Source: an uncultured Candidatus Saccharibacteria bacterium
GTDB taxonomy: Bacteria > Patescibacteriota > Minisyncoccia > Phycocordibacterales > DATGWK01
Assembly (NCBI GenBank): GCA_964492195.1
Contig: CAZBJL010000002.1
Coordinates: forward strand, 25,472-89,471
Direction: 5' to 3'
Length of the DNA stretch: 64,000 bases
The notes beneath the pieces were generated by a model, which saw nothing but the letters and a program-made list of their open reading frames with translations, made no database searches and was not told the DNA's origin. Positions 1,518-54,608 of this stretch are shown piece by piece. How positions within the stretch are numbered: the first letter of the stretch is position 1; each line of letters starts with the position of its first letter. The position numbers and the translations under genes were made by a program.

Positions 1518-2789
1518 ATGCTCAAGAAAATTTTTAAAATCTTACTCGTTCTCATAGTTCTCACCGCTCTTGCCTTGGGAGCGTTTTGGTTTTTCAATCA
1601 TCGGAACAATGCCACGAGTGATTCATTTCTTTCCAACATTAGCGTTGGCAACTTCTTTCCGTTTGGACAGGGGACAGTTGAAACACCCGTAACCCCAATC
1701 GAAACAAACAACCCCACAAACCCCGACACAACCTCGTCTCCAGGCATCCCCGTACTTCCACCAGCATTGTGGCAGATTTCAAACCAACCACAGTCAGGGG
1801 CAATTGCTTTTAACGCTTCAGGAACTCCCACTGTTCGCTACATAGACAAAGCAACAGGCAATACATTTGAAGGTGCTTTGAGAATTTTAGGTGTAAAAAG
1901 AATTACAAACACAACGATTCCAAAAGTGTACGAAGCACTCTGGCAGCCAAACGGAAATGCACTCGTTCTTCGTTTTCTCATAAATAAAGACGAAACAATC
2001 CGAAGCACATTCGGCAAATTATCAACGAAATCTGCGAGCTCAACACCAGCAGGGGAGGAAACTTTTCGAGAACTTGCTGTTTCATTTCTCGCAGACAACA
2101 TCACAAGCCTTTCTGTTGATCCATCGAGTGGCGCAATTGCATATGTTTCTAAAAATCCGACTGGTTCAAGAATCTATGTCGCAAGTTCCAACGCCACTAA
2201 TCCAAAACAGATTTTTGAATCTCAAATAAACGATCTCTCGATTTCTTGGGTAAACAGCACGACTTTGGCGGTCCTTAGCAAACCAAGCAAAGACACTATT
2301 GGTCAATTCTATTTCCTTAAAACAGATTCAGGAAAACTTGAAAGGGTGCTTGGTGGTCAAAACGGCCTCATGGCGTTAGCCCAAGCCGATGCCAACACGG
2401 TTGTATACTCATGGACATCGGGCACTTCAATACAATCTGCACTATTTAACAAAAAAACAGGGGAGAGAAACGCACTCCGCTTTGCCGTCATCCCAGAAAA
2501 ATGCGTTTTCTCAAACAAATCTACAAACCTCTACTGTGCTGCACCAAAAGCAATGCAGTCCAACAACCTTCCAGACGATTGGTATCAAGGCCGTATCACA
2601 TTTAACGATTCATTCTGGAGAATTAACACAACAACAGGTGCCGCTGACCTCATTACAGACCCTAAAGTTGCCGCTGGAACAGAAGTTGATGCAACAAACC
2701 TCATGCTCGATCCAAACGAAGAGCATCTTATATTTACAAATAAAAAAGACTCCGCTCTCTGGGGTCTACGAATCGGGGCAGGGAATTAA
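1518..2789 (+). CDS. hypothetical membrane-anchored protein
   Basis: N-terminal TM helix (ILLVLIVLTALALGAFWFF), beta-rich body, no catalytic motif recognised. Confidence 0.45.
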   Translation: MLKKIFKILLVLIVLTALALGAFWFFNHRNNATSDSFLSNISVGNFFPFGQGTVETPVTPIETNNPTNPDTTSSPGIPVLPPALWQISNQPQSGAIAFNASGTPTVRYIDKATGNTFEGALRILGVKRITNTTIPKVYEALWQPNGNALVLRFLINKDETIRSTFGKLSTKSASSTPAGEETFRELAVSFLADNITSLSVDPSSGAIAYVSKNPTGSRIYVASSNATNPKQIFESQINDLSISWVNSTTLAVLSKPSKDTIGQFYFLKTDSGKLERVLGGQNGLMALAQADANTVVYSWTSGTSIQSALFNKKTGERNALRFAVIPEKCVFSNKSTNLYCAAPKAMQSNNLPDDWYQGRITFNDSFWRINTTTGAADLITDPKVAAGTEVDATNLMLDPNEEHLIFTNKKDSALWGLRIGAGN

Positions 2790-2910
2790 TTTTGTTTAGC
2801 ACACCATCTCGCAGCGAGGAAGGATCATGTGTTGAGCGAAGCCTGCGACGCGAAACACATGTCCGAACGCAAGCTGCGTTGGCGAAAGCCAGTACAACAG
2901 CCTAGATCTT

Positions 2911-3696
2911 CTACTTATCTGAAACCAACGCAACTGCAGGGTTTGGAGATGCCGTGGTATCACTCGTTTTTGCAACGGATCGTCGAATTACCAACTCCTG
3001 ACCAATCGTAAAGAGGTTGCTTGTGATCCAGTACACAGCAATCGCACCAGAAACCGTCCACGAAACGATAAATGCGAGAACAGGGAGCATGTATCTCATC
3101 TGTGTGCCCATACTTCGGGTCAAATCGTGCTTAAATTTTTCTTCTTTGGTCATATTTTCCTTCGCAGGCTTACTTGAAACTGGGGGAATAGAAAATCTGA
3201 TCTGAATAAAAGACGTCACACCTGCAAGAATAGCGAGAATCAAACTCTTTCCAGAAATATCGAAAAGGCCTAGGAACATTGTATTGATTACGTGCGGCAC
3301 TGAAACGAAAGAGTAGAGAATCGAAGTGTTTATTTGGTCAAAACCAACAATGAACACTCGGTAGAGAGCAAAAATGATCGGCAACTGAATGAGAATGAGC
3401 ACAACGCTTGCGAATGGATTGATTTTATTATTCTTATAGAGCTCCATCGTCTTGCGAGCGTATTCTTGTTTGTCGTTTTTGTATTTTTCTTTGAGGTTAG
3501 CGAGTTCTGGCTCAACTTTTTTCATTTTGAGCTGGGTGGTGACGGCCTTTTTGGAAATAGGGAAGAGAACAAGCTTTACAATGATGGTAAAAATAACGAT
3601 TGCGACGCCGGCATCAACCCACGGCAATACATCCATTAAAAAAATCAGACCGTTATAAAGCGGGTTAAAAACAATCGTGTGGTAGAGAAATGACAT
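2911..3696 (-). CDS. yidC: membrane protein insertase YidC (short form)
   Basis: YidC/Oxa1 core helices (LFPISKKAVTTQLKMKKVEPELANLKEKYKNDKQ...NPFASVVLILIQLPIIFALY); canonical position next to rnpA-rpmH. Confidence 0.8.
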   Translation of the reverse strand: MSFLYHTIVFNPLYNGLIFLMDVLPWVDAGVAIVIFTIIVKLVLFPISKKAVTTQLKMKKVEPELANLKEKYKNDKQEYARKTMELYKNNKINPFASVVLILIQLPIIFALYRVFIVGFDQINTSILYSFVSVPHVINTMFLGLFDISGKSLILAILAGVTSFIQIRFSIPPVSSKPAKENMTKEEKFKHDLTRSMGTQMRYMLPVLAFIVSWTVSGAIAVYWITSNLFTIGQELVIRRSVAKTSDTTASPNPAVALVSDK

Positions 3697-3727: not shown

Positions 3728-4069
3728 TCAAACAGAAAGAATGCGGGCACGAGTGAGAAGTTCTTTTATTTCTTGAGCAATGTCTTCATACGCACGCTTT
3801 TCACCACCCTTTTTTACAGACACACCAACAAGGAAGCCAGTAGCTACGCGGGGGAGGAGAGGTCGGATAGCGCTATACACCCTCCGACGAGTTCGATTTC
3901 GCATTACAGCTGTTGGTGCCACCTTTTTAGAAACAGAAACAGCAAAACGCGTATCTCCGTCGGTAGACTTTAGAATTTTGAGTAAGAAAAAGGGTGAAGA
4001 TGTAGAACCACCCCGTATAAACACCTCTCGGGCGAGCGCCTTGGGGATTCGTTGCTCTCGAGAAAGCAT
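3728..4069 (-). CDS. rnpA: ribonuclease P protein component
   Basis: 113 aa, basic, RNR-TRRR motif (AVMRNRTRRRV); located between rpmH and yidC. Confidence 0.8.
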   Translation of the reverse strand: MLSREQRIPKALAREVFIRGGSTSSPFFLLKILKSTDGDTRFAVSVSKKVAPTAVMRNRTRRRVYSAIRPLLPRVATGFLVGVSVKKGGEKRAYEDIAQEIKELLTRARILSV

Positions 4070-4078
4070 GAGGAGTAA

Positions 4079-4219
4079 TTAGACCGTAACTCGCTTACGA
4101 CCCTTTGTACGACGACGGGAAACAGTTCTTTTACCGCCGGCAGACTTCATTCTCTTCAAAAAACCGTGGCTTTTTGAGCGTTTTCTCTTTTTGGGTCTGT
4201 AGGTTAAACCTTGTTTCAT
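4079..4219 (-). CDS. rpmH: 50S ribosomal protein L34
   Basis: Hand-translated 46 aa [46 protein letters not shown]; not in the ORF track (<60 aa). Confidence 0.85.
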
Positions 4220-4289
4220 ATATGAGTGAGATATTACAATGTATTCAAAATTAAATCAATATTCGATCAAGAAAATTCCAAAAAATACA

Positions 4290-4385
4290 AAACTCACACC
4301 CTATCCACAATTTGTGAACATACAACTTGAACTTAAACAAGTATTATAATTCCACATCAAGGATATAATCTACTGCTAACGGACA
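4290..4385 (+). promoter_or_regulatory. dnaA upstream region with DnaA-box-like sites
   Basis: ctatccaca at 4301..4309 (8/9 to TTATCCACA); AT-rich with -10-like tataat. Confidence 0.35.
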
Positions 4386-5771
4386 ATGTCTACTGAAAAC
4401 AAAAAAATTTGGGATAACGTTCTGGTTGAAATGGAACTTTCTGTTTCAAAGCCCAATTTTACGACCTGGTTTCGAGACACTTCTATTTTTAAAGTCGAAG
4501 ATGGGGTAGCGTTCATCAGCGTTCCCAATAATTTCGTCAAAGACTGGCTCTACAAAAAATACCACTCAACAATTCTCAAGATTTTACGCACTGCGGCACC
4601 CACCGTTCGCTCTCTTGAGTATTCCGTAAGCCGAAGTGATGCCAAAAAGCGCAGCCCAGCCGAAGATCGTCCTTCTACAACCTCGTTAATCAACAACGAG
4701 CTTCCTCTAAGCGATTTTTACATAAACAAAGAGGACAATCTCAACCCTCGCTATGGTTTTGACTCATTTATCGTCGGGCCGTTCAACGAACTTGCATACG
4801 CAGCTGCCCAAGCTGTCGTAAAAAAGCCAGGTATCGTCTACAATCCGCTCTTTATATACGGAAACACTGGCCACGGCAAAACCCATCTCATCCAAGCAGT
4901 AGGGAATTACCTCAAACACATGTACCCAGAGATGCGAATTCACTACGTCACATCCGAAAAATTCGCGAGTGACTACGTGAGCTCCGTTCAATCCGCCCAA
5001 AGCAACCCAAACCACTCCAATAAAATAAGCAATTTTAAAGAAAAATACCGAAAATACGACGTTTTGATCATGGATGACATCCAATTCCTCTCAAAAACCG
5101 AGAAAACCCAAGAGGAATTGTTCCACCTGTTCAATCATCTCTACGACAACAACAAACAAATCGTCTTTTCATCCGACAAACACCCAAATTACATTCCCAA
5201 TCTCGAGGATCGCCTTCGTTCTCGCTTCGCGGCCGGCATGATTGTCGATATTCCTGCCCCAGACCACGAGTCGAGAATTGCAATTCTCAAAGCAAAGCTC
5301 CGAAACCAGGAATTAATCCTTTCAGATGAGATCATAGACTTCGTTGCAGCGTCAGTTTCTACAAACATCCGCGAACTTGAAGGAGTTTTGAACGCTGTCA
5401 TCTGCCAGGCACAGCTTAAAGGAAGAGAACTAACCCTCCAGGAAACAAAACTTCTCCTCAAAAACAGTGCGCGACCAGCAAAAAGAACCCTTTCTACCAA
5501 AGAAGTCATTAAAATCGTCGCTGATTTCTACAACATTGAAGAATCAAGTATTTATGAAAAAACCCGAAAGAAAGAAGTTATCCGTCCTCGCCAAATGACG
5601 ATGTATATCCTCCGAGAAGATTTCAAAATCTCATACCCGTCGATCGGGGAGAGACTTGGCGGACGCGACCACACCACTGTTATTCACTCATGCGAGAAGG
5701 TAAAAGGCGACCTCAAGGTCGACCCAACTCTTGGTCAGGAATTGAATCAGATTCGAGCTCTTATCACATAA
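4386..5771 (+). CDS. dnaA: chromosomal replication initiator DnaA
   Basis: Walker A GNTGHGKTHL, AAA+ box, C-terminal DnaA-box-binding HTH (HTTVIHSCEKV). Confidence 0.95.
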   Translation: MSTENKKIWDNVLVEMELSVSKPNFTTWFRDTSIFKVEDGVAFISVPNNFVKDWLYKKYHSTILKILRTAAPTVRSLEYSVSRSDAKKRSPAEDRPSTTSLINNELPLSDFYINKEDNLNPRYGFDSFIVGPFNELAYAAAQAVVKKPGIVYNPLFIYGNTGHGKTHLIQAVGNYLKHMYPEMRIHYVTSEKFASDYVSSVQSAQSNPNHSNKISNFKEKYRKYDVLIMDDIQFLSKTEKTQEELFHLFNHLYDNNKQIVFSSDKHPNYIPNLEDRLRSRFAAGMIVDIPAPDHESRIAILKAKLRNQELILSDEIIDFVAASVSTNIRELEGVLNAVICQAQLKGRELTLQETKLLLKNSARPAKRTLSTKEVIKIVADFYNIEESSIYEKTRKKEVIRPRQMTMYILREDFKISYPSIGERLGGRDHTTVIHSCEKVKGDLKVDPTLGQELNQIRALIT

Positions 5772-6024: not shown

Positions 6025-7128
6025 ATGAAGACCGAATGTGTAAAAGAAAAGTTAACAGCGGCGGTAGCACAAGCTGAAAAAATTACCGGGAAGAATTTAT
6101 CTCTTGCTGTTCTTGGTTGTGTATTTCTTGAAGCAGGAAAAAATACACTTTCGATTAAATCTACAAATCTCGATCTTGGTATTGAAATAACAATTCCAAC
6201 TAAAACCGAAAAGGAAGGGAAGGTGGCAGTGCCCGGGAATATTTTATCTGGTTTCCTTAACAACTCTCCGTACGAAAAAAATATAACCCTTGAAACCACA
6301 GACACAGGTCTTCTTAAAATCACTACAGAAAAAACTTCCACAACTATTAAATCCGTAAGTCCTGATGATTTTCCTTCTATTCCACAGGTTTCAGACGAAC
6401 AATCTTTTAAAATTAAAGGATCAGACTTTGTACGCGGTTTAAAGTCGGTCTGGTATAGCTCTTCGGTCTCAAGTATCAAACCCGAACTATCGAGCGTCCT
6501 GGTGCGTTGTGACGACGATACGCTTGTGTGTGCGGCCACAGACTCCTTCCGTCTTGCCGAGAAGAAAGTAAAACTTAAAGATCAAAAACCTTTCGACAGT
6601 ATTTTGATTCCCTTTAAAAACGTTCAAGAAATCATTCGAGTACTCGATGCTTCAGAGGAGGATGTTCTCTTTTGTGTGACTAAAAACCAAATTTCTATTT
6701 CTTACGACGGTGTGTATCTCACATCTCGCGTTATCGACGGTGTTTTTCCCGATTATCACCAGATTATTCCAAAGGAAAACCAAACAGAAGTTATTGTTCT
6801 TAAAGACGATCTCATTCAAGCCTTCAAAATCGCTAATATTTTCTCCGATAAATTTAATCAGGTGAATATGAAAGCTGAACCGTCAAAGAAAACATTTGAA
6901 ATTAAAACAAATAATGCAGATTTGGGTGAAAGTGTGAATAAAATCGATGCAACATTTAAAGGTGATGACGTTGCGGTGAATTTTAATCACAAATACGTTA
7001 CTGATTGTTTTGGTTCGTTGAGCGGCGACAGTCTTTCTTTGTCTTTTAACGGTTTAAGTCGTCCGCTTGTGATTCGTGGAGTAGGTGATCCATCATTCTT
7101 ATACCTCGTGATGCCAATGAATCGATAA
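6025..7128 (+). CDS. dnaN: DNA polymerase III beta sliding clamp
   Basis: 367 aa, three-domain clamp pattern; directly downstream of dnaA/oriC. Confidence 0.9.
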   Translation: MKTECVKEKLTAAVAQAEKITGKNLSLAVLGCVFLEAGKNTLSIKSTNLDLGIEITIPTKTEKEGKVAVPGNILSGFLNNSPYEKNITLETTDTGLLKITTEKTSTTIKSVSPDDFPSIPQVSDEQSFKIKGSDFVRGLKSVWYSSSVSSIKPELSSVLVRCDDDTLVCAATDSFRLAEKKVKLKDQKPFDSILIPFKNVQEIIRVLDASEEDVLFCVTKNQISISYDGVYLTSRVIDGVFPDYHQIIPKENQTEVIVLKDDLIQAFKIANIFSDKFNQVNMKAEPSKKTFEIKTNNADLGESVNKIDATFKGDDVAVNFNHKYVTDCFGSLSGDSLSLSFNGLSRPLVIRGVGDPSFLYLVMPMNR

Positions 7129-7131
7129 TAT

Positions 7132-7386
7132 ATGAATCATATCGACGGTTTTTTTAGTAAATTCAAAAGTGCTTTCGCCAACATGGCGAACAAAAAGGAA
7201 ATCGTTGCCGCTGTCTGTCTTGCTCACAGCAAAACCACAATTCCTTTGTCTGGTATTGAAATCCAAGGTCCTGTGCTCAGGCTTAACATTAGTCCTGCAG
7301 CAAAAAGTGCTATCTTTATGAAAAAAACAGAAATTTTAGCTGAACTTAATCAAAAAATTAAACCCGCTTTGTTTGATATTCGCTAA
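7132..7386 (+). CDS. DUF721 / DciA-like small protein
   Basis: 84 aa immediately after dnaN; C-terminal segment VLRLNISPAAKSAIFMKKTEILAELNQ resembles the DUF721 consensus (..v.v.ssawaqEl...k..il.kln). Confidence 0.45.
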   Translation: MNHIDGFFSKFKSAFANMANKKEIVAAVCLAHSKTTIPLSGIEIQGPVLRLNISPAAKSAIFMKKTEILAELNQKIKPALFDIR

Positions 7387-7397
7387 GGGTGAGCGTT

Positions 7398-9659
7398 CTA
7401 CCTATTAGAATTGTTTGAAATTCCATTTGCTGTAGCCCATGCTTGGACGCCGTATTCCCAATATTTAAACTGTGGATCATCAGAAGGGTTTGAAGGAATC
7501 GGACCCCGAGGATCGTTTTTATCTACCCAGTAGAGGATAGAGTGAACTCCACCAGAAAGAATTTCACCCAGGTCTTCGACCGGAGTAGAGTCTCGAGCAG
7601 CTCTGTTGGTGTCTGTATCGACGACTGAAGAAATGCCACCTTCCCATCTTCCTCGAAGGACAGGTTTTAGATCCAAACCATTTTCTACGACGGGTCTTTG
7701 GAATTTTGTATCAGGAACTTTTTTGAGTGCTTCTGCCATGACGTTGTGCCAGTACGGAGCAATAATAAAGGCCGCAACCTTTCTTTCCATCGAACTGTTG
7801 TCATTGTTTCCGGCCCAGGCGGCGATAGCGATGTCTGGGGTGTATCCGACAGTAATCGCGTCTTTGTAGTCGTTTGTGGTACCGGTTTTCACCGCAACGT
7901 CACGTCCTGCAAAATGAAGAGGGGAATTATATCCAAAGGCTGGAGCGCGAGCTTGTTCGTCTGACAATACGTCAGAAATTTGTTCGGCAATTTTTGCATC
8001 GAGGACACGAGTTGGGTTTGTTGTTGATTTTTCCAAAGTGTTTCCGTTTTTATCTTTTACTTCAAGAATCATGCGGGGTGCATTTCGTACACCTTCGTTC
8101 GCAAAGACGCTGTATGCACTTGTGAGGTCGAGGAGAGAGACTTCGCCACCTCCAAGGACGAGTGTGAGGCCGTACTGGCCGATGTTTGTGAGGCTTTGGA
8201 TTCCCATACTCTGTGCAAGTTTGAGTGTGTCAGTCATACCTGAAAGATAAAAGGTTTTGATCGATGCAATGTTGATCGACTGGGCCAACGCATCTCGCAT
8301 GCTCATCGGGCCGTGATACTTTCCGTCGTAGTTTACAGGCATGTAGCAGTGTGACGATGAGTTGATTGGTTTTCCGTCGACAGTACATGTTGTTGAAAAT
8401 TCTGTTGGAACGTCGAAAACAACAGTTTCTGGAGTAAAACCTTTTATGAATGCTTCGGCATACGCAAATGGTTTGAAGGCAGAACCCGGCTGACGATGAG
8501 CGGTGGTGATGTTGAAGTTACCGCTGATTTCTTTGTCGAAATAATTTCTTGAACCAACCATAGCGAGAACGTCGCCAGTTTTGGGTTCAATTGCGACGAG
8601 GCCAATGTTTTCTGCGTTAAAATTCTTTTTATTTTCTGTTGCTTGTTTCAGAGCGAGTTCCTCGGCTTTTTTCTCGAGGTCGTAGTCGAGTGTGGTGATG
8701 ACGCGGAGTCCTCCTTGTTCGAGAACTTGTTCGCCATATTTTTGGACAAGTTGGTTTCGAACTTCCATGACGAAGTGTGGCGCTTTTATACCGAACGCTT
8801 CTTGTGGTTGGAAGGTTACGACTTCAGCTTTTGCTTGGTCATATGCATCTTTTTTAATGAAACCGTTTCGAAGCATTTCACTCAAGACAAGATTTTTGCG
8901 GGCGTCGAGTTCTGCTTTGTGTGAACCGTACGGCGAATAGTATGTCGGTGCTTTTGGAAGTGCGGCGAGGTATGCAGACTCGGCGAGGGTAAGGTCTTTT
9001 GACGATGTCGCAAAAAATGCTTGGCTCGCTTCTTCAACGCCGTACAAATTTCCGCCGAAGGGGATTTCGTTGAGATAAATGTTGAAAATCTCATCTTTTG
9101 TGAGGATTTTTTCGAGTTTCGGGGCGAGTACCCATTCTTTTATCTTTCGTGAAATCTGCTTTTCGTCAGTCAAAAGAGCGTTTTTGATGACTTGTTGTGT
9201 GATCGTTGAACCACCTTGGTTGTAGCCAAGGCCTGTGATGTTGGCAAACACAGCGCGAAGGATTGAGGAAATTCTAATGCCGTTATGTTGGTAGAAGTTA
9301 ATGTCTTCGATAGCCAACACAGCTCTTTTGGCGTTTGGTGAAATATCTTCAAACGGAACCACGGTGCGTTTTACGTTTTGAAATACGTCGTAGAGGAGCA
9401 CTTCGCCGGTGCGATCATAGATTTTTGTGGATTGGGTAACCGCACGATCCTGGAAAGATTCGAGGTTTGGAATTCTCCAGCTCGAAATCCAGAGCAAAAA
9501 GAGAGCGGCGACAAAGACAAATACACCAGCTCCTACTGTTGCGGTTCGGAGCGCAAAAGGCTTATTTATTTTGGGGATTTTGATTTTTTTCACAGTTTTT
9601 CTATTTACCCGCGCGACACACAACAGAAGTAATAATAAAATCAATATTATCACAATCAC
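7398..9659 (-). CDS. class A penicillin-binding protein (transglycosylase + transpeptidase), PBP1A-like
   Basis: N-terminal TM, GT51 motifs (EDINFYQHNGI, RISSILRAV), transpeptidase SxxK (SAFKPF), SxN and KTG (KTGTT). Confidence 0.85.
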   Translation of the reverse strand: MIVIILILLLLLLCVARVNRKTVKKIKIPKINKPFALRTATVGAGVFVFVAALFLLWISSWRIPNLESFQDRAVTQSTKIYDRTGEVLLYDVFQNVKRTVVPFEDISPNAKRAVLAIEDINFYQHNGIRISSILRAVFANITGLGYNQGGSTITQQVIKNALLTDEKQISRKIKEWVLAPKLEKILTKDEIFNIYLNEIPFGGNLYGVEEASQAFFATSSKDLTLAESAYLAALPKAPTYYSPYGSHKAELDARKNLVLSEMLRNGFIKKDAYDQAKAEVVTFQPQEAFGIKAPHFVMEVRNQLVQKYGEQVLEQGGLRVITTLDYDLEKKAEELALKQATENKKNFNAENIGLVAIEPKTGDVLAMVGSRNYFDKEISGNFNITTAHRQPGSAFKPFAYAEAFIKGFTPETVVFDVPTEFSTTCTVDGKPINSSSHCYMPVNYDGKYHGPMSMRDALAQSINIASIKTFYLSGMTDTLKLAQSMGIQSLTNIGQYGLTLVLGGGEVSLLDLTSAYSVFANEGVRNAPRMILEVKDKNGNTLEKSTTNPTRVLDAKIAEQISDVLSDEQARAPAFGYNSPLHFAGRDVAVKTGTTNDYKDAITVGYTPDIAIAAWAGNNDNSSMERKVAAFIIAPYWHNVMAEALKKVPDTKFQRPVVENGLDLKPVLRGRWEGGISSVVDTDTNRAARDSTPVEDLGEILSGGVHSILYWVDKNDPRGPIPSNPSDDPQFKYWEYGVQAWATANGISNNSNR

Positions 9660-9693
9660 TTAAAACATATTTCAAATATGCTAAAGTAGAGCC

Positions 9694-10920
9694 ATGTTTA
9701 AGAATTTTTTCTCAAGTTCCGCTTCTGGTGCTTCGACGGATGCCGGTATGATACACGAAATCCTCACTCGTGGCGTGGAGGAGATTTTTGTTAAGGAAAA
9801 TCTGGAAAAGCGTCTCCGATCAGGCAAAAAGCTCCGAATTAAGTTTGGAATTGATCCAACAGGCAAAAATATTCACCTCGGTAATGCAATTCCTCTTTTA
9901 AAACTCCGCGCATTTCAGAATCTTGGACACAAAGTTGTGTTGGTGGTGGGAGATTTTACAGCACAAATCGGCGACCCGTCCGACAAACTCGAAAAACGCC
10001 CAATGCTTACTGACGCGGATATTGCCCAAAACCTTATCGGATACAAAAAACAACTCGGAAAAATTATTGATTTGAAAAAAGCTGAAATCGTTCATAACAG
10101 TTCATGGCTTTCAAAACTTACATTTGAAGAAATTTGTCGCTTGGCGGAAAGTTTTTCTGTGCAACAGATGACAAATCGACGTAATTTTAAAGAGAGAATC
10201 GAAAATGGCACCGAAGTTTCGCTTCGAGAATTTCTATATCCGCTCATGCAGGGCTATGACTCCGTGATGACTCGGGCGGATGTTGAACTTGGTGGTTTCG
10301 ATCAATTGTTTAATCTAAAAGCAGGCCGAACGATTCAGAAACATTATGGAATGGTTGAGCAGGATATTGTCGCAGGCAAAATGCTTCTCGGTACTGACGG
10401 CAGAAAAATGTCGAAATCGTGGGGAAATACGATCAATGTCACCGACGAACCAAACCAAATGTTCGGCAAGGTGATGGCGATTCGAGATGAATTAATGCAG
10501 GATTATTTTTTGCTTTGCACAGATATGCCGCACGCTGATGCAGAAAAAATCGGTGCGCGAATCGAAACAGGGGAAAATCCTCGAGATCTCAAACTTGATC
10601 TCGCAGAACGAATCGTAACGTTGTACTGGGGTGTAAACGCTGCAAAAAAAGCTCGAACGGATTTCATTGAAACATTTAGTGAAAAGAAAATTCCAACAGA
10701 CATCAAAACGGTCCACGTAAATCCTGGCACGAAGCTTGTCGATGTCATTCTTTCCGAAAAACTTATTGAATCAAAAACAGAATGGCGAAGGTTGGTGGGT
10801 GAGGGAGCGGTGACTGATGCCGAAGCAGGGGTTGCTGTCACAGACGCAAACGGTGTCGCTGAAGGAAAAACATATCGGATCGGAAAGAGACGCTGGATAA
10901 AAATTGAAATAAAGAGTTAA
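9694..10920 (+). CDS. tyrS: tyrosyl-tRNA synthetase
   Basis: Class I HIGH (GIDPTGKNIHLGN), VVGDFTAQIGDPSDK, KMSKS; C-terminal S4-like domain; pattern matches TyrRS rather than TrpRS. Confidence 0.75.
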   Translation: MFKNFFSSSASGASTDAGMIHEILTRGVEEIFVKENLEKRLRSGKKLRIKFGIDPTGKNIHLGNAIPLLKLRAFQNLGHKVVLVVGDFTAQIGDPSDKLEKRPMLTDADIAQNLIGYKKQLGKIIDLKKAEIVHNSSWLSKLTFEEICRLAESFSVQQMTNRRNFKERIENGTEVSLREFLYPLMQGYDSVMTRADVELGGFDQLFNLKAGRTIQKHYGMVEQDIVAGKMLLGTDGRKMSKSWGNTINVTDEPNQMFGKVMAIRDELMQDYFLLCTDMPHADAEKIGARIETGENPRDLKLDLAERIVTLYWGVNAAKKARTDFIETFSEKKIPTDIKTVHVNPGTKLVDVILSEKLIESKTEWRRLVGEGAVTDAEAGVAVTDANGVAEGKTYRIGKRRWIKIEIKS

Positions 10921-11693: not shown

Positions 11694-12217
11694 TCGGCAT
11701 TAGTATACACCGCTTGAACATCGTCATTTTCTTCGAGTTCGGTGATGAGTTGGTCGAGTTTTGCTACGTCTTCGTCCGCAAGTTCCATTGTTGTGTTTGG
11801 TTTCCAGCCTTCAGCGGATTTTTCAAATGCCCACGATGCTGCGCCCATGCCGGCGAGTTCGTAGCCGTTTCGAGAAAGAATGTGTTTTATTTCTTGCACC
11901 GCTTTATTTTTGTTGTCGGTAAGTGTGTCGATGATGAGCGCGCATCCGCCGGGGCCGTAGGCTTCGTACATTGCGGACTCCATGACTGTGGAATTGTCTG
12001 TTGATTTTTTTACTGCGCGGTCGATGCTGTCGTTTGGCATATTGATAGCTCGCGCACGGTCGATGATTGCTTTGAGCGTGGGGCTATTTTTGTCGCCTCC
12101 AACTTTTTTCGCTTCGACGGTAATGAGTCGAGAAAATTTTGAAAAGGCTTTGCTTTTTTGAGCATCTGTTTTTCCTTTCTGTCTTTTGATTTGCGCCCAT
12201 TTATTATGTCCGGCCAT
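11690..12217 (-). CDS. YebC/PmpR-family regulator, shortened (internal domain missing)
   Basis: MAGHNKWAQIKRQKG... N-terminus and DDVQAVYTNAE C-terminus match YebC, but 175 aa versus about 245 aa. Confidence 0.75.
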   Translation of the reverse strand: MAGHNKWAQIKRQKGKTDAQKSKAFSKFSRLITVEAKKVGGDKNSPTLKAIIDRARAINMPNDSIDRAVKKSTDNSTVMESAMYEAYGPGGCALIIDTLTDNKNKAVQEIKHILSRNGYELAGMGAASWAFEKSAEGWKPNTTMELADEDVAKLDQLITELEENDDVQAVYTNAE

Positions 12218-12340
12218 AGTGGTTTATATAGTAATGGAAGGAAAAATCGAGGGCAAGCGCGAGGAAAATATGTTGACACTGCCATGCCAATAACCGATAC
12301 TTTCCGCAGATCATCGTACACATTCAAAAAGGAGGTAAAA

Positions 12341-12808
12341 ATGTCACACACCGATTTCCCGTCAATTTGCACTGCCTCTACCCATGTGGCAGTTGTCGTG
12401 TGTGTCACGACATTTTTTGAGAGAGTGCTCAACAACGAAACGACGAGTTCAGTACCCGAAGCGGCACTTTTTGCCCTCAAGGAGCGGTTTTTCAATCCCG
12501 TCCTCGATGGAGTTCTGATCGGCCGTGGTCATGTGAAGAAGGGTGCAGATCACGGGTTTGCAATTCAAAATTACGGAATTGCGTTCCGCGTGTTCCAGGC
12601 TCTCACCCCATGTAGATCGCAGGCCCAGATCGAGAAGGACATTGAGCCGAAGATCGAGCTGTATTCGAGCCTTACCGAGAAAGCCCGCAAAGGACTGCTG
12701 AACCTGAAGGATGCGTGCACTCTCAAAGATCTCAATGAAATGCGTTTGTTTTTGCGAGAGCTCGCAAAGCAAGGAGGAGCACATCGGCTTTCGTGTGGAG
12801 GATCCTAG
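12341..12808 (+). CDS. hypothetical protein (GC-rich insert)
   Basis: Strong SD aaaaggaggtaaaaATG; local GC about 52% versus about 40% in neighbours; followed by terminator. Confidence 0.45.
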   Translation: MSHTDFPSICTASTHVAVVVCVTTFFERVLNNETTSSVPEAALFALKERFFNPVLDGVLIGRGHVKKGADHGFAIQNYGIAFRVFQALTPCRSQAQIEKDIEPKIELYSSLTEKARKGLLNLKDACTLKDLNEMRLFLRELAKQGGAHRLSCGGS

Positions 12809-16303: not shown

Positions 16304-16771
16304 ATGAAGTGCCTTGCCGTATTGTTTTGTCTGATTGTTTTCTCTGTTACTGGTTGTGGCCCAAGTCATGGCTACGTCCGTACAGGGAATCATGTGCTCG
16401 TGAGCTACGACGATTCCAATACGGTTGTTGTGAAGAACAACATCGGTGGTGCGGTTCTCACAAACCTCTCCGTTGGAGGCAACACAGTTGCTTTCGAAGG
16501 TAGCGGGGGTACAATCAAGCAAATCGAGCTTACTACTGGCCAGGAAATTTCAGTCGGCCTTGGGTATACCGGTCAGTATTCAAACTGGTATATCGAGGTT
16601 AAGGCCGACGTCTACGACCTTTCCGGACAGTACCTCGGTTTGGCTGTGAAGGAGATTCCGCTCCGACACAGCTGGAATGGAAATGGCTACGGATACACCG
16701 AGCTCGTCTCGAAGCTCTGCGTCATCGACGCCTTCAAGCCGGTGCGAAGTATCGAGAAGTCAAAATATTAG
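16304..16771 (+). CDS. putative lipoprotein, hypothetical (GC-rich)
   Basis: Lipobox FSVTGC after signal peptide; -35/-10-like ttgact-17-taatat upstream; followed by hairpin + T-run. Confidence 0.5.
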   Translation: MKCLAVLFCLIVFSVTGCGPSHGYVRTGNHVLVSYDDSNTVVVKNNIGGAVLTNLSVGGNTVAFEGSGGTIKQIELTTGQEISVGLGYTGQYSNWYIEVKADVYDLSGQYLGLAVKEIPLRHSWNGNGYGYTELVSKLCVIDAFKPVRSIEKSKY

Positions 16772-19735: not shown

Positions 19736-20452
19736 ATGATTTATTTTGTTACAGGCGATGGTCGCGAAAAAGTCCAAAAAACTACACATGGACTTGTTGA
19801 AGCATTGCAGAAAAAGCGTCCCGACGCGCTCGTCTTTCGAATTGGGGAAGGTGAATGGGACAAAGACACCTTCAACGGTATCGCATCTGGGCAGGGCCTT
19901 TTTGAGAAAAAATATATTATCGTTCTTGATTCTGTTTTTCAAAACGAAGACGCGGCAGAGTACCTAAAAAGTATTCTTGGAGATTTACGTTCGGCTGAAC
20001 ACGCATTTGTAATTTCCGAACACGCACCAAAAGCTCCGATCAAAAATGCAATAAAGAAATTTTCAGAAAAAGTATGGGAAGTTGCAGAAGCCGAAAAAAT
20101 TTCCAAAAAAGAATTTAATATTTTTTCATTAACAGACGCATTGGGCGAGCGAAACAAAAGCCGACTCTGGACGCTTTACCAGAAGGCGATTATGGATGGA
20201 TCCGAACCAGAAGAAATTCACGGCATTTTATTTTGGCAGGTAAAAAGTCTCCTTGCTGCGGCACAAAGCAAGGATGCAGCGGAAGCTGGGCTTAAGCCAT
20301 TTGTGTGGGGGAAAGCGCGAGGATTTTTAAATAATTATTCGCTCGATGAACTCAAAAAGATATCGAGTAACATGGTGAGTTTGTATCACAACTCGAGACT
20401 CGAAAGTGTGCCACTCGAAGTTTCACTCGAGGAGTTTGTGTTAAGTATTTAA
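19736..20452 (+). CDS. DNA polymerase III delta subunit-like (HolA-like)
   Basis: Translationally coupled to polA; N-terminal Rossmann-like segment (KYIIVLD) and helical middle (FSLTDALGERNKSRLWTLYQ) resemble HolA; weak. Confidence 0.4.
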   Translation: MIYFVTGDGREKVQKTTHGLVEALQKKRPDALVFRIGEGEWDKDTFNGIASGQGLFEKKYIIVLDSVFQNEDAAEYLKSILGDLRSAEHAFVISEHAPKAPIKNAIKKFSEKVWEVAEAEKISKKEFNIFSLTDALGERNKSRLWTLYQKAIMDGSEPEEIHGILFWQVKSLLAAAQSKDAAEAGLKPFVWGKARGFLNNYSLDELKKISSNMVSLYHNSRLESVPLEVSLEEFVLSI

Positions 20453-20470
20453 AATCTGAACTTCTTAGAT

Positions 20471-20499
20471 TTGTAAGTTTATTTCTAATCCGTTACAAT
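20471..20499 (+). promoter_or_regulatory. sigma70-like promoter TTGTAA-17-TACAAT
   Basis: Near-consensus hexamers with 17-nt spacer upstream of the GC-rich orphan locus. Confidence 0.45.
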
Positions 20500-20575
20500 T
20501 TCGCAGGAAATAGGGTGTCTGGCGCGTGCCGGGTATTTCCTTACATGGCTCTTTAAAAGAAGGATGAGGTGAACA

Positions 20576-21121
20576 GTGAGTGCAATCTCTACTGTGGAGT
20601 CTGGGCCAAGAGCCGTTCAGTCACTCGGTTGTTTGAGGCAGGTCACGGGTGCAGAGAGGGTGGTCATTCCAGCTTTTCGGAGCACACGAACAATCGCAAG
20701 TGCGTTTCCGGAAGTTTTCAGTTTTGTGGCGAATGATTTTTTGCGTCCTGACGTGAACATTCCGCTCGAGGTGAATTCTCTCGACACGTCTGTTCGGGTC
20801 TGTGAACCATTTCGTGAGTGCTCGTTCGAAGAGATGTTCGGTGATTTCAACCCCGCGAGATACGATGAACTCTGCCTTTCGCAGGCGCACATCGTCAATT
20901 TTTTCCTTATTCCTGGTGTCGAACAGTTGTTGGCCAAGGTGGAGCCCATCACGTTGTTCCTTTTGAAGGTGGAAGACAGCTTCTCGGTTGTGAAGGTGTG
21001 TACACTTCCGAGTCGCAAACAGGAGGCGTCGATGTATCCACTCTCGCTTCTTCGCAACTGGAAGAGGATCACACAGATTCGAGTCGTCGTTCCGTGCTCG
21101 TTGTCGCCAGTTCCGACTTGA
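20576..21121 (+). CDS. hypothetical protein (GTG start), GC-rich orphan; coding status uncertain
   Basis: 181-codon ORF with gaggtg SD-like 5 nt upstream of GTG, bounded by promoter and terminator on + strand; local GC about 52%; a 206-aa antisense ORF also open. Confidence 0.35.
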   Translation: MSAISTVESGPRAVQSLGCLRQVTGAERVVIPAFRSTRTIASAFPEVFSFVANDFLRPDVNIPLEVNSLDTSVRVCEPFRECSFEEMFGDFNPARYDELCLSQAHIVNFFLIPGVEQLLAKVEPITLFLLKVEDSFSVVKVCTLPSRKQEASMYPLSLLRNWKRITQIRVVVPCSLSPVPT

Positions 21122-21130
21122 TCGTTTAAA

Positions 21131-21158
21131 CCCCCAGACATGTTCTGGGGGTTTTTGT
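21131..21158 (+). terminator. rho-independent terminator
   Basis: cccccagacatgttctggggg + ttttt. Confidence 0.55.
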
Positions 21159-21247
21159 TATGCCGGATTCTATTTTTAGAGTAATATGGCCTAGGAAAAA
21201 TGAATAGCTGTGTGCTGTTCGTGTCGATCTTTAACAAGGAGAATGAG

Positions 21248-22336
21248 ATGCGTTTTCTACTATCGCTGTTTGTTGTTTTGTCTTTCGTTATTCAACCAGC
21301 TTCAGCTCAAAGGTATACGGTGACCGATTTGGGAACACTCGGGGGTGGTTCTAGTCGAGCTACTGGAATCAATAATTATGGGCAGGTTGTTGGGTGGGCG
21401 AATACACCCAATGGATTTCAGCGGGCGTTTTTGTACACGAACGGTTCAATGCAGAATCTTTCACTCGGCGGCGCATCCAGTGTTGCTAATGGAATTAATG
21501 ATAATGGACAAGTTGTCGGACAGTCCGAATATGTTAATGGTTTTGGTATTAAACACGCTTTCCTGTACTCTTCCTCAAATGGTGCAATGCTTGATTTATT
21601 TGCTTCATCTGGCAATTTAATTAACGGTTACAGTAGTGCTGAAGCGATCAATAATAATGGGGAAATAGTCGGGTGGCATTTTCGAGGTGTTGAAGTTCAT
21701 CAAGCCTTCAAATATTCGGCTGGGGTTTTGCATGACCTAGTAACTCTTACGGGCTCTGGTCCAGGTTTTAATGGAAGTAAGGGGATCAACGATGTTGGTG
21801 AGGTTGTGGGCTATAGCTGGGCCAGTGTCGATCCAATTGTCAGCCACGCATTTCTTCATGTTGATGGAGCGGCGCGTGATTTGGGAACCCTCGGTGGTTC
21901 CTTTAGTATTGCTGTAGGAATTAATCTCACCCGACAAATAGTTGGGTGGTCTAACACTACAAATAACGTCTCTACTCATGCGACGCTCTGGCAAAATGAT
22001 ATGGTACGAGATCTGGGAACTCTTGGAGGGGATTATAGTTACGCAAACTCAATTAATGTAGGTGGGCAGGTGGTAGGTAGTTCTTCAAGAGCTGATGCGA
22101 CCTATCGAGCTTTTGTGTATCTAGATGATCAAATACAAGACCTGAATGATCTGATTGACCCTAATCTGGGTTGGACTCTGCTCGATGCAACTTCTATAAA
22201 CAACTCCGGTCAAATTGTTGGTTATGGAACAAATTCATTGGGTCAAGAACATGCGTTTCTACTCAATCCTGTTCCGGAACCAGCGACCTTGTTGTTCGTT
22301 ACGTTCCCTCTTCTTATTTTTCGGCGTCAACGATAA
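21248..22336 (+). CDS. HAF-repeat extracellular protein with PEP-CTERM-like sorting tail
   Basis: Signal peptide; at least 6 repeats of G.N..GQVVG.......HAFL..G.M.DLGTLGG; C-terminal VPEPATLLFVTFPLLIFRRQR (PEP motif, TM, Arg cluster); SD aaggaga before ATG. Confidence 0.6.
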   Translation: MRFLLSLFVVLSFVIQPASAQRYTVTDLGTLGGGSSRATGINNYGQVVGWANTPNGFQRAFLYTNGSMQNLSLGGASSVANGINDNGQVVGQSEYVNGFGIKHAFLYSSSNGAMLDLFASSGNLINGYSSAEAINNNGEIVGWHFRGVEVHQAFKYSAGVLHDLVTLTGSGPGFNGSKGINDVGEVVGYSWASVDPIVSHAFLHVDGAARDLGTLGGSFSIAVGINLTRQIVGWSNTTNNVSTHATLWQNDMVRDLGTLGGDYSYANSINVGGQVVGSSSRADATYRAFVYLDDQIQDLNDLIDPNLGWTLLDATSINNSGQIVGYGTNSLGQEHAFLLNPVPEPATLLFVTFPLLIFRRQR

Positions 22337-22362
22337 TTGTTCTGTGTGTAAAAATAAACTAA

Positions 22363-22392
22363 CCCGGCGATTACATCGCCGGGTTTTTTTCT
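22363..22392 (+). terminator. rho-independent terminator
   Basis: cccggcgattacatcgccggg + ttttttt. Confidence 0.5.
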
Positions 22393-22473
22393 TTACTAAA
22401 TTTTTAATAGTAGTTTTTACCTCGTGTCGTCACGGATAATTTCCTCGCCGACGCCCTGGATTTTTCTTGCTTG

Positions 22474-22546
22474 TCCGCCCAGCAGGATTCGAACCTGCGA
22501 CCAAGTGCTTAAAAGGCACCTGCTCTACCAACTGAGCTATAGGCGG
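22474..22546 (-). tRNA. tRNA-Lys (anticodon TTT)
   Basis: Hand-folded cloverleaf: acceptor CCGCCTA/TGGGCGG, D arm GCTCAGTTGGTAGAGC, anticodon loop CTTTTAA, T arm GCAGGTTCGAATCCTGC. Confidence 0.75.
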
Positions 22547-22580
22547 ATATTTTGTGGTTTTGTGCGCAATTCCTCCTGTA

Positions 22581-22605
22581 ACTACCAAAACAGCTATAGG
22601 CGGAT
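22581..22605 (-). pseudogene. partial tRNA copy (5' acceptor + D-arm-like fragment)
   Basis: aactaccaaaacagctataggcggat matches 21/24 nt to the tRNA-Lys 5' third located 35 nt away; no T arm follows. Confidence 0.4.
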
Positions 22606-46702: not shown

Positions 46703-46785
46703 GCGCAGGTGGCGAAATTGGTAGACGCACTACCTTGAGGTGGTAACGCCCATCGGGCATGGAGGTTCAAGTCCTCTCCTGCGCA
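46703..46785 (+). tRNA. tRNA-Leu (anticodon GAG)
   Basis: 83 nt, acceptor GCGCAGG/CCTGCGC, anticodon loop TTGAGGT, long variable arm, T arm GGAGGTTCAAGTCCTCT. Confidence 0.75.
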
Positions 46786-46797
46786 CTGGTTTTTTAT

Positions 46798-51941: not shown

Positions 51942-54608
51942 ATGGCAAAGCGCGCAATTGAACATATTTTTACAGGAGCAACGGTACCGTACGAAAATTA
52001 CGATGCTGATAAAACGATGTTGGGAGATTTGATCGAGCAGTACACCGGTGCTCTTGCGACAGACAATTTTGCTGGACCTGCAAAAATTGGCGTCGCTCGT
52101 CCTTTCGAAACAGGAACATCGATCCCGGGAATCTTTCCACATGTTATTTCGTGGGGAAACAAAGAGGGCTTTTATTCTACTGGCACAGTTTCAGTTGCGG
52201 CCACAGCGGTTACCGGATCGGGGACTGGTTGGCTTGCCAACGGAGTTCCGATTGGTGCCCGTATCGGCTTCGGTTCAACAGATCCCGCTAGCATAACTAC
52301 CTGGTATACGATAACGGCAGTAGCTTCAGCTACGGCTCTAACAATAGGTAGTTCTGCGGGGACGATCGCCGGAGGTACCGCTTTTGTTATAAATAAGGAA
52401 ATTAAAAAAGACTGGGTATTTTTGGCTGACGGTATCGCTGCATCTGCAATTCGTCGCATTACATGTTTTGAATACGACAGACTCACATCGCTTTTTTCGT
52501 GGAGAGGTTTCATCACTATCACATACGCTGCCGGTGGAGGTAACCAAACGATTCGTGGAATGCGAGCGGTGTATGAGACGTACACTACAGGAACAATAGG
52601 TGTTTCAGGTGCCACGGTTACTGGTTCCAGCACAACGTGGTCAGCAGATCGAATTGCTATTGGTTCACGTATTGGTTTCGGTAGCACGGATCCAACACAA
52701 ATATCTACGTGGTACTACATCAACGCTGTTGGTTCTGATACCTCTATTACTATTCAAACAAACATAACCGCGAGCGGTACTGGTGGAACCGCGGCAAATA
52801 TTTCAGTATCGTCGAGTACCGCCTATGTCATTGAGGATTTGAAAATTTTAACTGCCACTACCACTGCTACGAATATAAACGCAGGTGGTCTTACAATGGT
52901 GAACGGTCTTTCGTATGACGATTTTGCTGTTGGAGGTACTACCATTGCTGCGGCAACAACGGTGGATAAAACAAAAGCCGCATATTCTCTTGTTGATCTC
53001 GATTCGGTGTATTCAACGGGAACAATAAACACAGTTACCAATTCAACAACAGTTACCGGTTCTGGAACAACGTGGGTGTCAGCCTCTCACGTGGGTTGTA
53101 TGATCGGTTTTGGTTCAACAAGTCCCGCCTCGATTACAGAATGGTTCACTATTACTGCGTTTACGTCGGGTACCTCCATAACTATTTCCTCCGCCACCAC
53201 TGTCACCAACGGTTCAGCGTATGTGATCGTTGGTGGAAACGGTATATCCTGCGGTTTGGCGATGGATGATCGTGATAGTTGGACACAACAATATGCATAC
53301 ATCATTGAGCTTCAGGGAGGAACGACACCACAGGTGTATAAATATAATTTCCGAGTGAACCTCAGTACCCTCGGAAACGTAGAAGCGGGAAAAGCTGCAG
53401 CTGCGTGGGTGCTCACAACCGGTACCCAGACGCTTACTGGAACCGTGACACAAACAAATAATGGGCGAATTGGAACGCTCGCTCATGGTCCTGGTTCTGG
53501 TACGAAGTGTTTGTATTTCGCAGCAACAACAAGGATTCATCGTGCTCCACTCGCTAGTATCACCCAAGGAAGTATTACGTGGGTCGCGGATTCGATGACA
53601 GAAGTACCAACAGGAGGATCGGGAACGTATACCTTAACGAGCTTGATGACATCAGTAGAAATTGCCGATCAGATCGATCGACTTATTATTACTTCAACAG
53701 GAGCAGGCGCGACCGTTGCCCATCATCGTGCCTACATTACAAAATACGACGCCTCTGGTTCGTACCAATTTGACCATATGTTTTTGGCAGATACTGCACA
53801 ACAAGACCAATCTACTGCAGACTCGACCTCTACACCCCACCCGAGTTACCAGGGAGCCGCTTTGTCTGTGTGGTCACAGGCTGGTCTTGTATATATTGTT
53901 CGTACCGGACTTACAGCAACGACGAATATTATGTACGCTGTTCCGCTCGGTGCTGATTGGCAGTACGCGGATGGTACGGTAAATCAAAGACTCATCACAC
54001 CTTCACTTCCTACAACAAATGCAGAAAAACTATCCAGGGTGTTTGTAAATAATGCTGATTATCTTGGATCAGGTGGACTTACGTTGCCGACAGAACCTTT
54101 AAGAATTTATTATCGAACAGCGGATATTACTGATGATTCTGGTTCCTGGACACTCGTAGACACTACAGGAGATTTGTCTGCTGCGAACGTCACGACCGAG
54201 ATACAGTTTGCAATAGAATTTCGAATGATCGGAGCATTGTGTATTCCAAACCGTGTCTACAATCTTTGCTGCACGTACGAAGACAACACAACTGATAGTC
54301 ACTATCAGCCGTCTGTGGGCCAGTCATCTACAACTGGAAAGATTTTTGCATGGAGATTTTCAACTGCATTCGGTGGTACAGTACCGACATTGCGTATCAG
54401 GCTCTACAATGCTGAAACAGATGCGGAATTGCTCGATGACACAACAACGGCTTCTGCTGATGGAACGTGGGGAAAATCAACAAACGATGGGGCAGGGTGG
54501 GGTTTATACGACGCAACGGACAAGGGAAATGAAACGACGTACATTCGGTATACCCCAACGGTCCTTGCTGACAATATAAAAGTAAGAGCGCTTCTCACTC
54601 AAGCATAA
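51942..54608 (+). CDS. large repeat protein (888 aa) with about 45-aa GSGT.W...IGFGST.P..IT.WYTI repeats
   Basis: At least 4 copies of the repeat in the N-terminal 450 aa; Thr/Ser/Gly-rich; no signal peptide seen. Confidence 0.5.
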   Translation: MAKRAIEHIFTGATVPYENYDADKTMLGDLIEQYTGALATDNFAGPAKIGVARPFETGTSIPGIFPHVISWGNKEGFYSTGTVSVAATAVTGSGTGWLANGVPIGARIGFGSTDPASITTWYTITAVASATALTIGSSAGTIAGGTAFVINKEIKKDWVFLADGIAASAIRRITCFEYDRLTSLFSWRGFITITYAAGGGNQTIRGMRAVYETYTTGTIGVSGATVTGSSTTWSADRIAIGSRIGFGSTDPTQISTWYYINAVGSDTSITIQTNITASGTGGTAANISVSSSTAYVIEDLKILTATTTATNINAGGLTMVNGLSYDDFAVGGTTIAAATTVDKTKAAYSLVDLDSVYSTGTINTVTNSTTVTGSGTTWVSASHVGCMIGFGSTSPASITEWFTITAFTSGTSITISSATTVTNGSAYVIVGGNGISCGLAMDDRDSWTQQYAYIIELQGGTTPQVYKYNFRVNLSTLGNVEAGKAAAAWVLTTGTQTLTGTVTQTNNGRIGTLAHGPGSGTKCLYFAATTRIHRAPLASITQGSITWVADSMTEVPTGGSGTYTLTSLMTSVEIADQIDRLIITSTGAGATVAHHRAYITKYDASGSYQFDHMFLADTAQQDQSTADSTSTPHPSYQGAALSVWSQAGLVYIVRTGLTATTNIMYAVPLGADWQYADGTVNQRLITPSLPTTNAEKLSRVFVNNADYLGSGGLTLPTEPLRIYYRTADITDDSGSWTLVDTTGDLSAANVTTEIQFAIEFRMIGALCIPNRVYNLCCTYEDNTTDSHYQPSVGQSSTTGKIFAWRFSTAFGGTVPTLRIRLYNAETDAELLDDTTTASADGTWGKSTNDGAGWGLYDATDKGNETTYIRYTPTVLADNIKVRALLTQA

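Follow-up and report, generated by a model that had tools for sequence, protein, structure and literature searches.

A GC-rich gene between holA and tRNA-Lys in a patescibacterial genome encodes a divergent, stand-alone relative of diversity-generating retroelement target proteins

We analysed a 64-kb window of contig CAZBJL010000002.1 (the window is the whole stretch of DNA examined, and coordinates are positions in it unless another locus is named), with attention to the GC-rich segment at 20460-21160, which lies between the gene holA and a tRNA-Lys gene. An earlier note on this DNA had described that segment as a unit running from promoter to terminator and open on both strands, and had asked whether it was a protein gene or a structured RNA; all the elements it named are present where it had placed them. 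The segment contains an open reading frame (ORF) of 181 codons, here called ORF181, which is a new, divergent, stand-alone member of the variable proteins already known as targets of diversity-generating retroelements (DGRs) in the Candidate Phyla Radiation (CPR). The unit is composed as follows:

20471..20499, plus strand: promoter-like site TTGTAA-N17-TACAAT, in the 123-nt gap after holA; 9/12 match
20506..20540, plus strand: candidate 5'-terminal stem-loop of the mRNA leader (GGAAAUA...UAUUUCC), a hairpin in both the minimum-free-energy and the centroid structures
20566..20571, plus strand: Shine-Dalgarno sequence GAGGTG, by reading of the sequence, with GAGG 6 nt before the GTG
20576..21121, plus strand: ORF181 coding sequence, GTG start, 181 codons; divergent member of the Patescibacteria DGR variable (target) protein family
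20981..21100, plus strand: equivalent of the DGR variable region (VR), codons 136-175 (FSVVKVCTL...IRVVVPCS), from alignment with the VRs of the relatives P0004 (aa 189-228) and P0002 (aa 164-204)
21128..21159, plus strand: intrinsic terminator with an 11-bp stem, a 5-nt loop and a T5 run; the hairpin (21128-21154) begins 6 nt past the ORF181 stop codon
20617..21237, minus strand: antisense ORF, 206 codons; shadow frame

The terminator is as strong as the earlier note held it to be (-18.3 kcal/mol, z = -4.0); none of 200 shuffles equalled it. The GTG-initiated frame was likewise confirmed, and because an in-frame TGA occupies 20570-20572, the GTG at 20576 is the earliest possible start. The Shine-Dalgarno sequence had been called weak, and this was mistaken, as GAGG at such a distance from the start codon makes a good site. 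The near-consensus promoter stood in part: the two hexamers are indeed separated by 17 nt on the plus strand, but a 9/12 match occurs at chance frequency. Its position makes it a plausible promoter of a monocistronic transcript starting near 20506. A 5'-terminal stem-loop may be present in the leader of this transcript, and the leader as a whole is no more stable than shuffles (z = -0.26). ORF181 would be transcribed from its own promoter, and the transcript would be ended by the hairpin.

The earlier note had found that the product of ORF181 resembled nothing recognisable, which holds for curated libraries and for a word-indexed search. Pfam, PHROGs, PADLOC and NCBIfam gave no match to ORF181 at E <= 1, the FGE-sulfatase and lectin_C profiles included, and among 5.8 billion proteins searched by word index only an identical sequence, on a 2.3-kb Logan contig, was matched. 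A scan of viral contigs with ORF181 found none, and tblastn and blastn of the region in 88 related loci returned the identical Logan contig and the terminator of locus L010, and nothing else. In contrast, when 1.84 billion cluster representatives were scanned exhaustively with HMMER, 53 relatives of ORF181 were recovered, with whole-library E values from 2e-8 to 1e-3, about 30% identity and alignments over residues ~17-175. The case therefore marks a limit of routine searching: curated libraries and 5.8 billion indexed proteins were blank, and it was exhaustive HMMER together with genomic context that found the family. Its alignment shows the motifs ATDG..TIA.A..VF..ID.DF, LCLTQ.QII.F, FFLFK and R.RVVVPQL, and by reading of the alignment ORF181 retains 14 of the 16 columns that are invariant or nearly so. 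Given this alignment, AlphaFold2 predicted a compact alpha/beta domain (predicted local distance difference test, pLDDT, 87.3; predicted template-modelling score, pTM, 0.83), whereas the single ORF181 sequence gave an uninformative model (pLDDT 31). Because the alignment of the relatives is conserved and AlphaFold2 is confident with it, the ORF181 locus is almost certainly a protein-coding gene. The GC content by codon position (0.54/0.42/0.58) has the coding-like order, with the first position (GC1) above the second (GC2), and the ORF181 frame and its shadow have the best codon score among the six frames.

A large structured RNA, with the reading frames incidental, had been suggested by the high GC, the openness of both strands and the promoter-like site and terminator around ~650 nt. 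No Rfam 15 family reached its gathering threshold in the region. Relaxing the limit to E <= 10 gave short matches only, none near the gathering score of its family, and the best of these were terminator look-alikes placed over the terminator. The putative transcript of 655 nt (20506-21160) had no excess folding energy over dinucleotide shuffles on either strand (z = -0.69 on the plus strand, -0.90 on the minus strand). Furthermore, the 88 related loci contained 0 homologues at the DNA level (the identical contig and the L010 terminator aside), whereas homologues at the protein level are abundant, and the sense frame has the GC1 > GC2 periodicity described above. The RNA explanation is effectively refuted. 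The antisense frame was confirmed to be open for 206 codons and is longer than the sense ORF, yet the chance that it is a real gene is negligible. It has no match in Pfam, PHROGs, PADLOC or NCBIfam, and tblastn in the 88 related loci found no relative. Its GC1 is below its GC2 (0.39/0.49), which is not coding-like; its third positions are common with those of the ORF181 codons, and it crosses the terminator into the beginning of the next gene. The antisense ORF is the usual shadow frame, sharing the wobble positions of a gene that has homologues.

The three best HMMER matches, P0002 (2e-8), P0003 (1.2e-7) and P0004 (1.2e-7), are all found in DGR cassettes, in which the VR of the target gene is accompanied by a template repeat (TR):

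P0004, locus L096: gene 8001-8708, VR 8565-8683, TR 9040-9158, 13/13 mismatches at TR adenines; adjacent genes bAvd 9175-9417 (minus strand) and an RVT_1 reverse transcriptase (RT) 9591-10574
P0002, locus L098: gene 8001-8627, VR 8491-8612, TR 8934-9055, 12/12 mismatches at TR adenines; bAvd after the TR, then the contig end
P0003, locus L100: gene 2254-3072, VR 2944-3061, TR 3428-3545, 16/16 mismatches at TR adenines; adjacent RVT_1 RT 3900-4964

These cassettes are textbook DGRs, and the VR is formed by the final 40 codons of the target. BLASTP aligned ORF181 with P0002 (4e-19) and P0004 (2e-18) over the full length, including the VR segment, and therefore the VR-equivalent of ORF181 is placed at about 20981-21100. 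Targets of CPR DGRs usually have no recognisable domains and are thought to be novel variants of the C-type-lectin fold (PMC8144416), and CPR variable regions are mostly ungrouped or assigned to 'unknown VR' classes (PMC5758913). It is very likely that ORF181 belongs to a Patescibacteria-specific family which has no Pfam or NCBIfam model and whose closest members are DGR target proteins.

The named members of the family are hypothetical proteins of Candidatus Zambryskibacteria and Patescibacteria. The polA of the window is 73-75% identical to polA of metagenome-assembled genomes of the Paceibacteria/Zambryskibacteria type, and, judged by its sequence, the window itself is patescibacterial. When the 54 family sequences were compared with Pfam, no Pfam family matched two or more of them; a profile search against the sequences in PDB gave no match with E below 0.06, and Foldseek found no match to the predicted fold in PDB or BFVD. 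The predicted fold of the family may be a C-type-lectin-like variant.

The family is met in three states, namely beside a DGR cassette, in tandem arrays of paralogues, and as stand-alone copies in islets of fast turnover. Stand-alone members were found in L095, L099, L090 and L093, with 0 DGR genes within 5-8 kb. The tandem array is in L092 (4635-7402 of that locus), where four genes carry five family domains, one gene being two-domain; its GC is host-like, and no DGR is present on the 7.9-kb contig. A polymorphic-toxin immunity protein (SUKH-like), which such tandem arrays had brought to mind, was dropped for lack of fold or sequence support. L095 contains a cassette-like duplication of two adjacent units (6422-7561 and 8049-9159). 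On the 5' side the two units are 88% identical over a flank that contains the promoter-like site TTGACT...TATAAT; on the 3' side they are 99% identical over 300 nt, a stretch that reaches into the beginning of the following gene. Between these flanks they carry unrelated ORFs, of which a single one is a family member.

We considered whether ORF181 is still diversified. No TR of the segment 20460-21160 was found in the 64-kb window by blastn (word size 7) or by a repeat search, and an adenine-tolerant template scan of the window reached a peak of 103/151 (mean 72), against 151/151 for the region with itself. A DGR-type RT was not found in the window by tblastn with the L096 RT (best E 0.48), nor was Avd with two bAvd proteins (best E 0.19). 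NNC codons have a frequency of 0.24 in the VR-equivalent and 0.25 in the rest of the gene, compared with 0.41-0.50 in the VRs of the DGR-linked relatives and 0.24-0.31 elsewhere in those genes. By reading, the nine codons at positions homologous to template AAC are all reachable from AAN template codons; the NNC test was therefore demoted from proof of inactivity to a suggestive result. Because TR, RT and Avd are missing from the window, the VR-equivalent has no NNC excess, the 'ADYRHR' stretch is lost and stand-alone members are common elsewhere, ORF181 is most likely a stranded or fixed copy. The account as a whole, a monocistronic gene of the DGR-target family present as such a copy, is likely to be right. 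We lean, with rather less assurance, to the view that it is not currently diversified.

Several observations weigh against this reading. The codon-usage score of ORF181 is ~0 compared with 0.215 +/- 0.08 for 39 host genes, that is, 2.7 standard deviations under them, which alone could fit a decaying or recently imported gene. ORF181 does not have the G of the 'ATDG' motif or the 'ADYRHR' stretch of the conserved VR scaffold, and it is only ~30% identical to the DGR-linked members. Among 9/12 promoter matches, four were found in 3 kb and 4.4 were expected, so the promoter-like site occurs at the chance rate. The lack of a TR and an RT is established for 64 kb of the genome only, and the only other copy of the gene, on the Logan contig (L001), is 100% identical.

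Two other accounts of the present state of the gene have to be set against a stranded or fixed copy. In one of them ORF181 is an active remote target, and its codons ~136-175 continue to be diversified by a DGR that lies more than 20-40 kb off in the genome or is carried by a phage or episome. In favour of this, the three closest relatives are without exception DGR targets, every one of the nine codons opposite template AAC can be reached from AAN, and a GC-rich hairpin is located just downstream of the VR-equivalent. In the Bordetella phage DGR a comparable hairpin aids target recognition. Non-adjacent or remote targets have also been documented for other DGRs (PMC5758913, PMC8144416). We nevertheless regard continuing diversification from a distance as unlikely, given the absence of TR, RT and Avd from the 64 kb, the loss of the scaffold stretch, the identity of the two available copies and a VR-equivalent which, unlike those of the DGR-linked relatives, is not enriched in NNC. 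The other account, in which ORF181 is a decaying remnant, open by chance and non-functional after loss of the DGR, draws on the low codon score, the fast turnover of the islet and the state of the L010 homologue, which is truncated at the N-terminus and 22% identical while holA of that locus is 79% identical. This is less probable still: the 181-codon frame is intact, 14/16 conserved columns are retained and AlphaFold2 is confident in the family alignment, and the good Shine-Dalgarno sequence, the first-possible start and the terminator right after the stop codon are all in place.

The elevated GC that the earlier note had pointed out was confirmed, with 0.516 for ORF181 against a window mean of 0.426 (z = 2.7; 0.06% of 546-nt windows are as high), and coding-strand adenine, at 0.194, is in the lowest 1% of 546-nt windows. 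The note had taken the composition as a possible sign of a foreign protein gene. The protein gene stands (53 homologues, a predicted fold, a Shine-Dalgarno sequence and a stop codon 6 nt before the terminator), but foreign origin does not best account for the GC excess, because the same upward excess occurs in six related genes from six other genomes and the RT and Avd of the cassettes are GC-poor. The values are as follows:

L096: gene GC 0.503, locus GC 0.403
L098: gene GC 0.440, locus GC 0.366
L100: gene GC 0.531, locus GC 0.461
L095: gene GC 0.573, locus GC 0.461
L099: gene GC 0.581, locus GC 0.460
L101: gene GC 0.521, locus GC 0.437
Window (ORF181): gene GC 0.516, window GC 0.426

The excess is +7 to +12 points and is upward in 6/6 sampled closer relatives, with or without a DGR nearby. 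The non-VR part of the target genes is GC-elevated as well, the RT and Avd of the same cassettes are 5-7 GC points under their locus, and GC is host-like in the paralogues that are more distant (L090, L092 and L093). Since it recurs in the six sampled closer relatives irrespective of a DGR, the GC excess is a trait of the ORF181 subfamily and constant in direction. Horizontal transfer of the whole cassette was rejected as its cause because the RT and Avd that accompany these targets are GC-poor. It is conceivable, though unlikely, that the GC excess of the targets and the adenine depletion of the whole gene are a long-term footprint of adenine mutagenesis reaching beyond the annotated VR, or of selection against adenines that likewise extends beyond it. 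If either is true, target-type genes could be recognisable by composition alone, even after loss of the retroelement. GC-rich targets beside GC-poor RT and Avd are a cheap signal that might help to find such genes.

ORF181 occupies an islet with conserved borders, in which a second insert follows it:

19736..20452, plus strand: holA (DNA polymerase III delta), from PF21694 and synteny; conserved left border of the variable islet
21200..22336, plus strand: DUF3466-like repeat-protein gene with a PEP-CTERM-like tail; second lineage-specific insert in the islet, separate from the ORF181 unit
22473..22546, minus strand: tRNA-Lys(UUU); conserved right border of the islet

The order polA, holA, interval, tRNA-Lys (minus strand), membrane protein and SpoU-type gene is conserved in relatives, and the interval between holA and tRNA-Lys is variable among them. 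In L011 and L012 it is empty except for a hairpin terminator. L002-L005 have differing small ORFs in it, which in L002-L004 are small and Cys-rich, and in L005 there are three minus-strand ORFs that are paralogues of one another (250, 210 and 143 aa; motif SYGFECLRSRRG). By reading of translations, the interval of L009 contains regulator-like, substrate-binding-protein-like and IS3-type transposase-like genes. Across L002-L005, L009-L012 and L019, then, this interval is a gene-turnover hot spot.

The closest relative found is L010, whose holA is 79% identical to that of the window. At exactly the position of ORF181 it has an N-terminally truncated family homologue of 140 aa (hidden Markov model E 1.9e-5, BLASTP identity 22%) which retains the LC.TQ.Q..FF motif, and at 6176-6201 of L010 the ORF181 terminator hairpin is kept (23/26 nt, 88%), directly followed by tRNA-Lys. 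Because L010 has both a positional homologue and the same hairpin, the ORF181 gene is older than the split of the window and L010 lineages, and it has diverged far faster than its neighbours. The gene at 21200-22336 is absent from all related loci and present only here and on the identical Logan contig; this DUF3466-like gene was inserted later, in the lineage of the window, between the ORF181 hairpin and tRNA-Lys. Its product of 378 aa has a DUF3466 match, four internal repeats of ~130 nt, a signal-peptide-like N-terminus and a PEP-CTERM-like C-terminus, and a bidirectional terminator belonging to the gene lies at 22361-22385.

An integrative element at tRNA-Lys was considered and rejected, as there is no integrase and no att-type repeat flanking ORF181. 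The 5' part of tRNA-Lys (22525-22548) recurs as a 24-nt copy with 88% identity at 22582-22605, 57 nt off on the membrane-protein side. The copy is conserved in L010 (~6293-6316) and L011 (~951-976); it is only partial and is on the other side of the tRNA from ORF181, and it may be what remains of an old attachment site, or else an element associated with a promoter.

Other features of the window were noted in passing. At 46703-46786, directly upstream of tRNA-His, ARAGORN calls a tRNA but leaves its anticodon undetermined ('tg' at position 34); against the Rfam tRNA model it scores 49 bits. Two very long ORFs (56467-59640 and 51942-54608) have GC2 > GC1, the first with many internal repeats of 87-199 nt, and both are probably repetitive surface proteins. 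Among the remaining long ORFs of the window, only that of 216 aa at 12158-12808 (codon score -0.017, GC 0.482) is as atypical as ORF181. GC reaches its other maximum (0.518) at 16304-16771, in an ORF of 155 aa with a lipoprotein-type N-terminus (…VTGC), just upstream of an ORF of 164 aa that was read as TsaE-like.

Considering the above results, we propose a plausible course for the history and function of ORF181. In the DGR-linked relatives, a complex of RT and Avd copies the TR into the final ~40 codons of the target with errors at adenines. Published accounts place the diversified residues of other DGR targets on the ligand-binding face of the C-type-lectin fold (PMC11661182, PMC6328139). 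By analogy with targets of that fold, the domain of this family may serve as a ligand-binding scaffold. The specificity of ORF181 would once have been set by a DGR, or been inherited from a diversified ancestor, and would now change by ordinary mutation; ORF181 would most likely be a binder of fixed specificity. Its product would act inside the cell, because no signal peptide or transmembrane segment is visible by eye, and CPR DGR targets are generally reported to act there (PMC8144416). A GC-rich, doubly open unit from promoter to terminator has in this way been resolved as a protein gene and not a new large RNA. The analysis also documents an unannotated, Patescibacteria-specific family of DGR targets with a predicted variant of the C-type-lectin-like fold, which is of modest interest for DGR and CPR biology, and stranded copies such as this one could show how binding proteins evolved by DGRs become fixed.

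Large structured bacterial RNAs resemble the unit in being GC-rich within an AT-rich genome and in having a promoter-like site and a terminator at their ends, but Rfam has no match to ORF181, its folding energy is not in excess, and its conservation is clearly that of a protein. The C-terminal domains of FGE-sulfatase, EgtB, OvoA and PvdO, which have the C-type-lectin-like superfold, resemble the predicted structure of ORF181 at the level of the fold only (4-10% identity); there is no sequence-profile match to them, and nothing in ORF181 points to enzymatic activity. TvpA (Treponema denticola variable protein 1, PDB 2y3c), Mtd and other variable proteins of the C-type-lectin fold have in common with ORF181 a C-terminal variable region, but they show no sequence similarity to it and no Foldseek match. 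Besides being larger, TvpA is a lipoprotein and has a subdomain of the FGE type that Pfam recognises, in contrast to ORF181 and its family, which match no Pfam model. Targets of the TvpA type can lie remote from the RT. The nearest known system is that of the DGR variable proteins of Patescibacteria and CPR, of which P0002, P0003 and P0004 are examples (clade 2 of Roux et al., 2021, PMC8144416; the ungrouped or 'UVR' classes of Wu et al., 2018, PMC5758913). ORF181 differs from these in having no TR, Avd or RT within 64 kb, in a VR-equivalent without NNC enrichment and without part of the VR scaffold, and in an identity of only ~30%. It is nevertheless homologous to them over the whole domain, and it resembles them in size, in consisting of a single domain, in the lack of any membrane segment or recognisable Pfam domain, in GC excess over the host genome and in having its own terminator straight after the gene.
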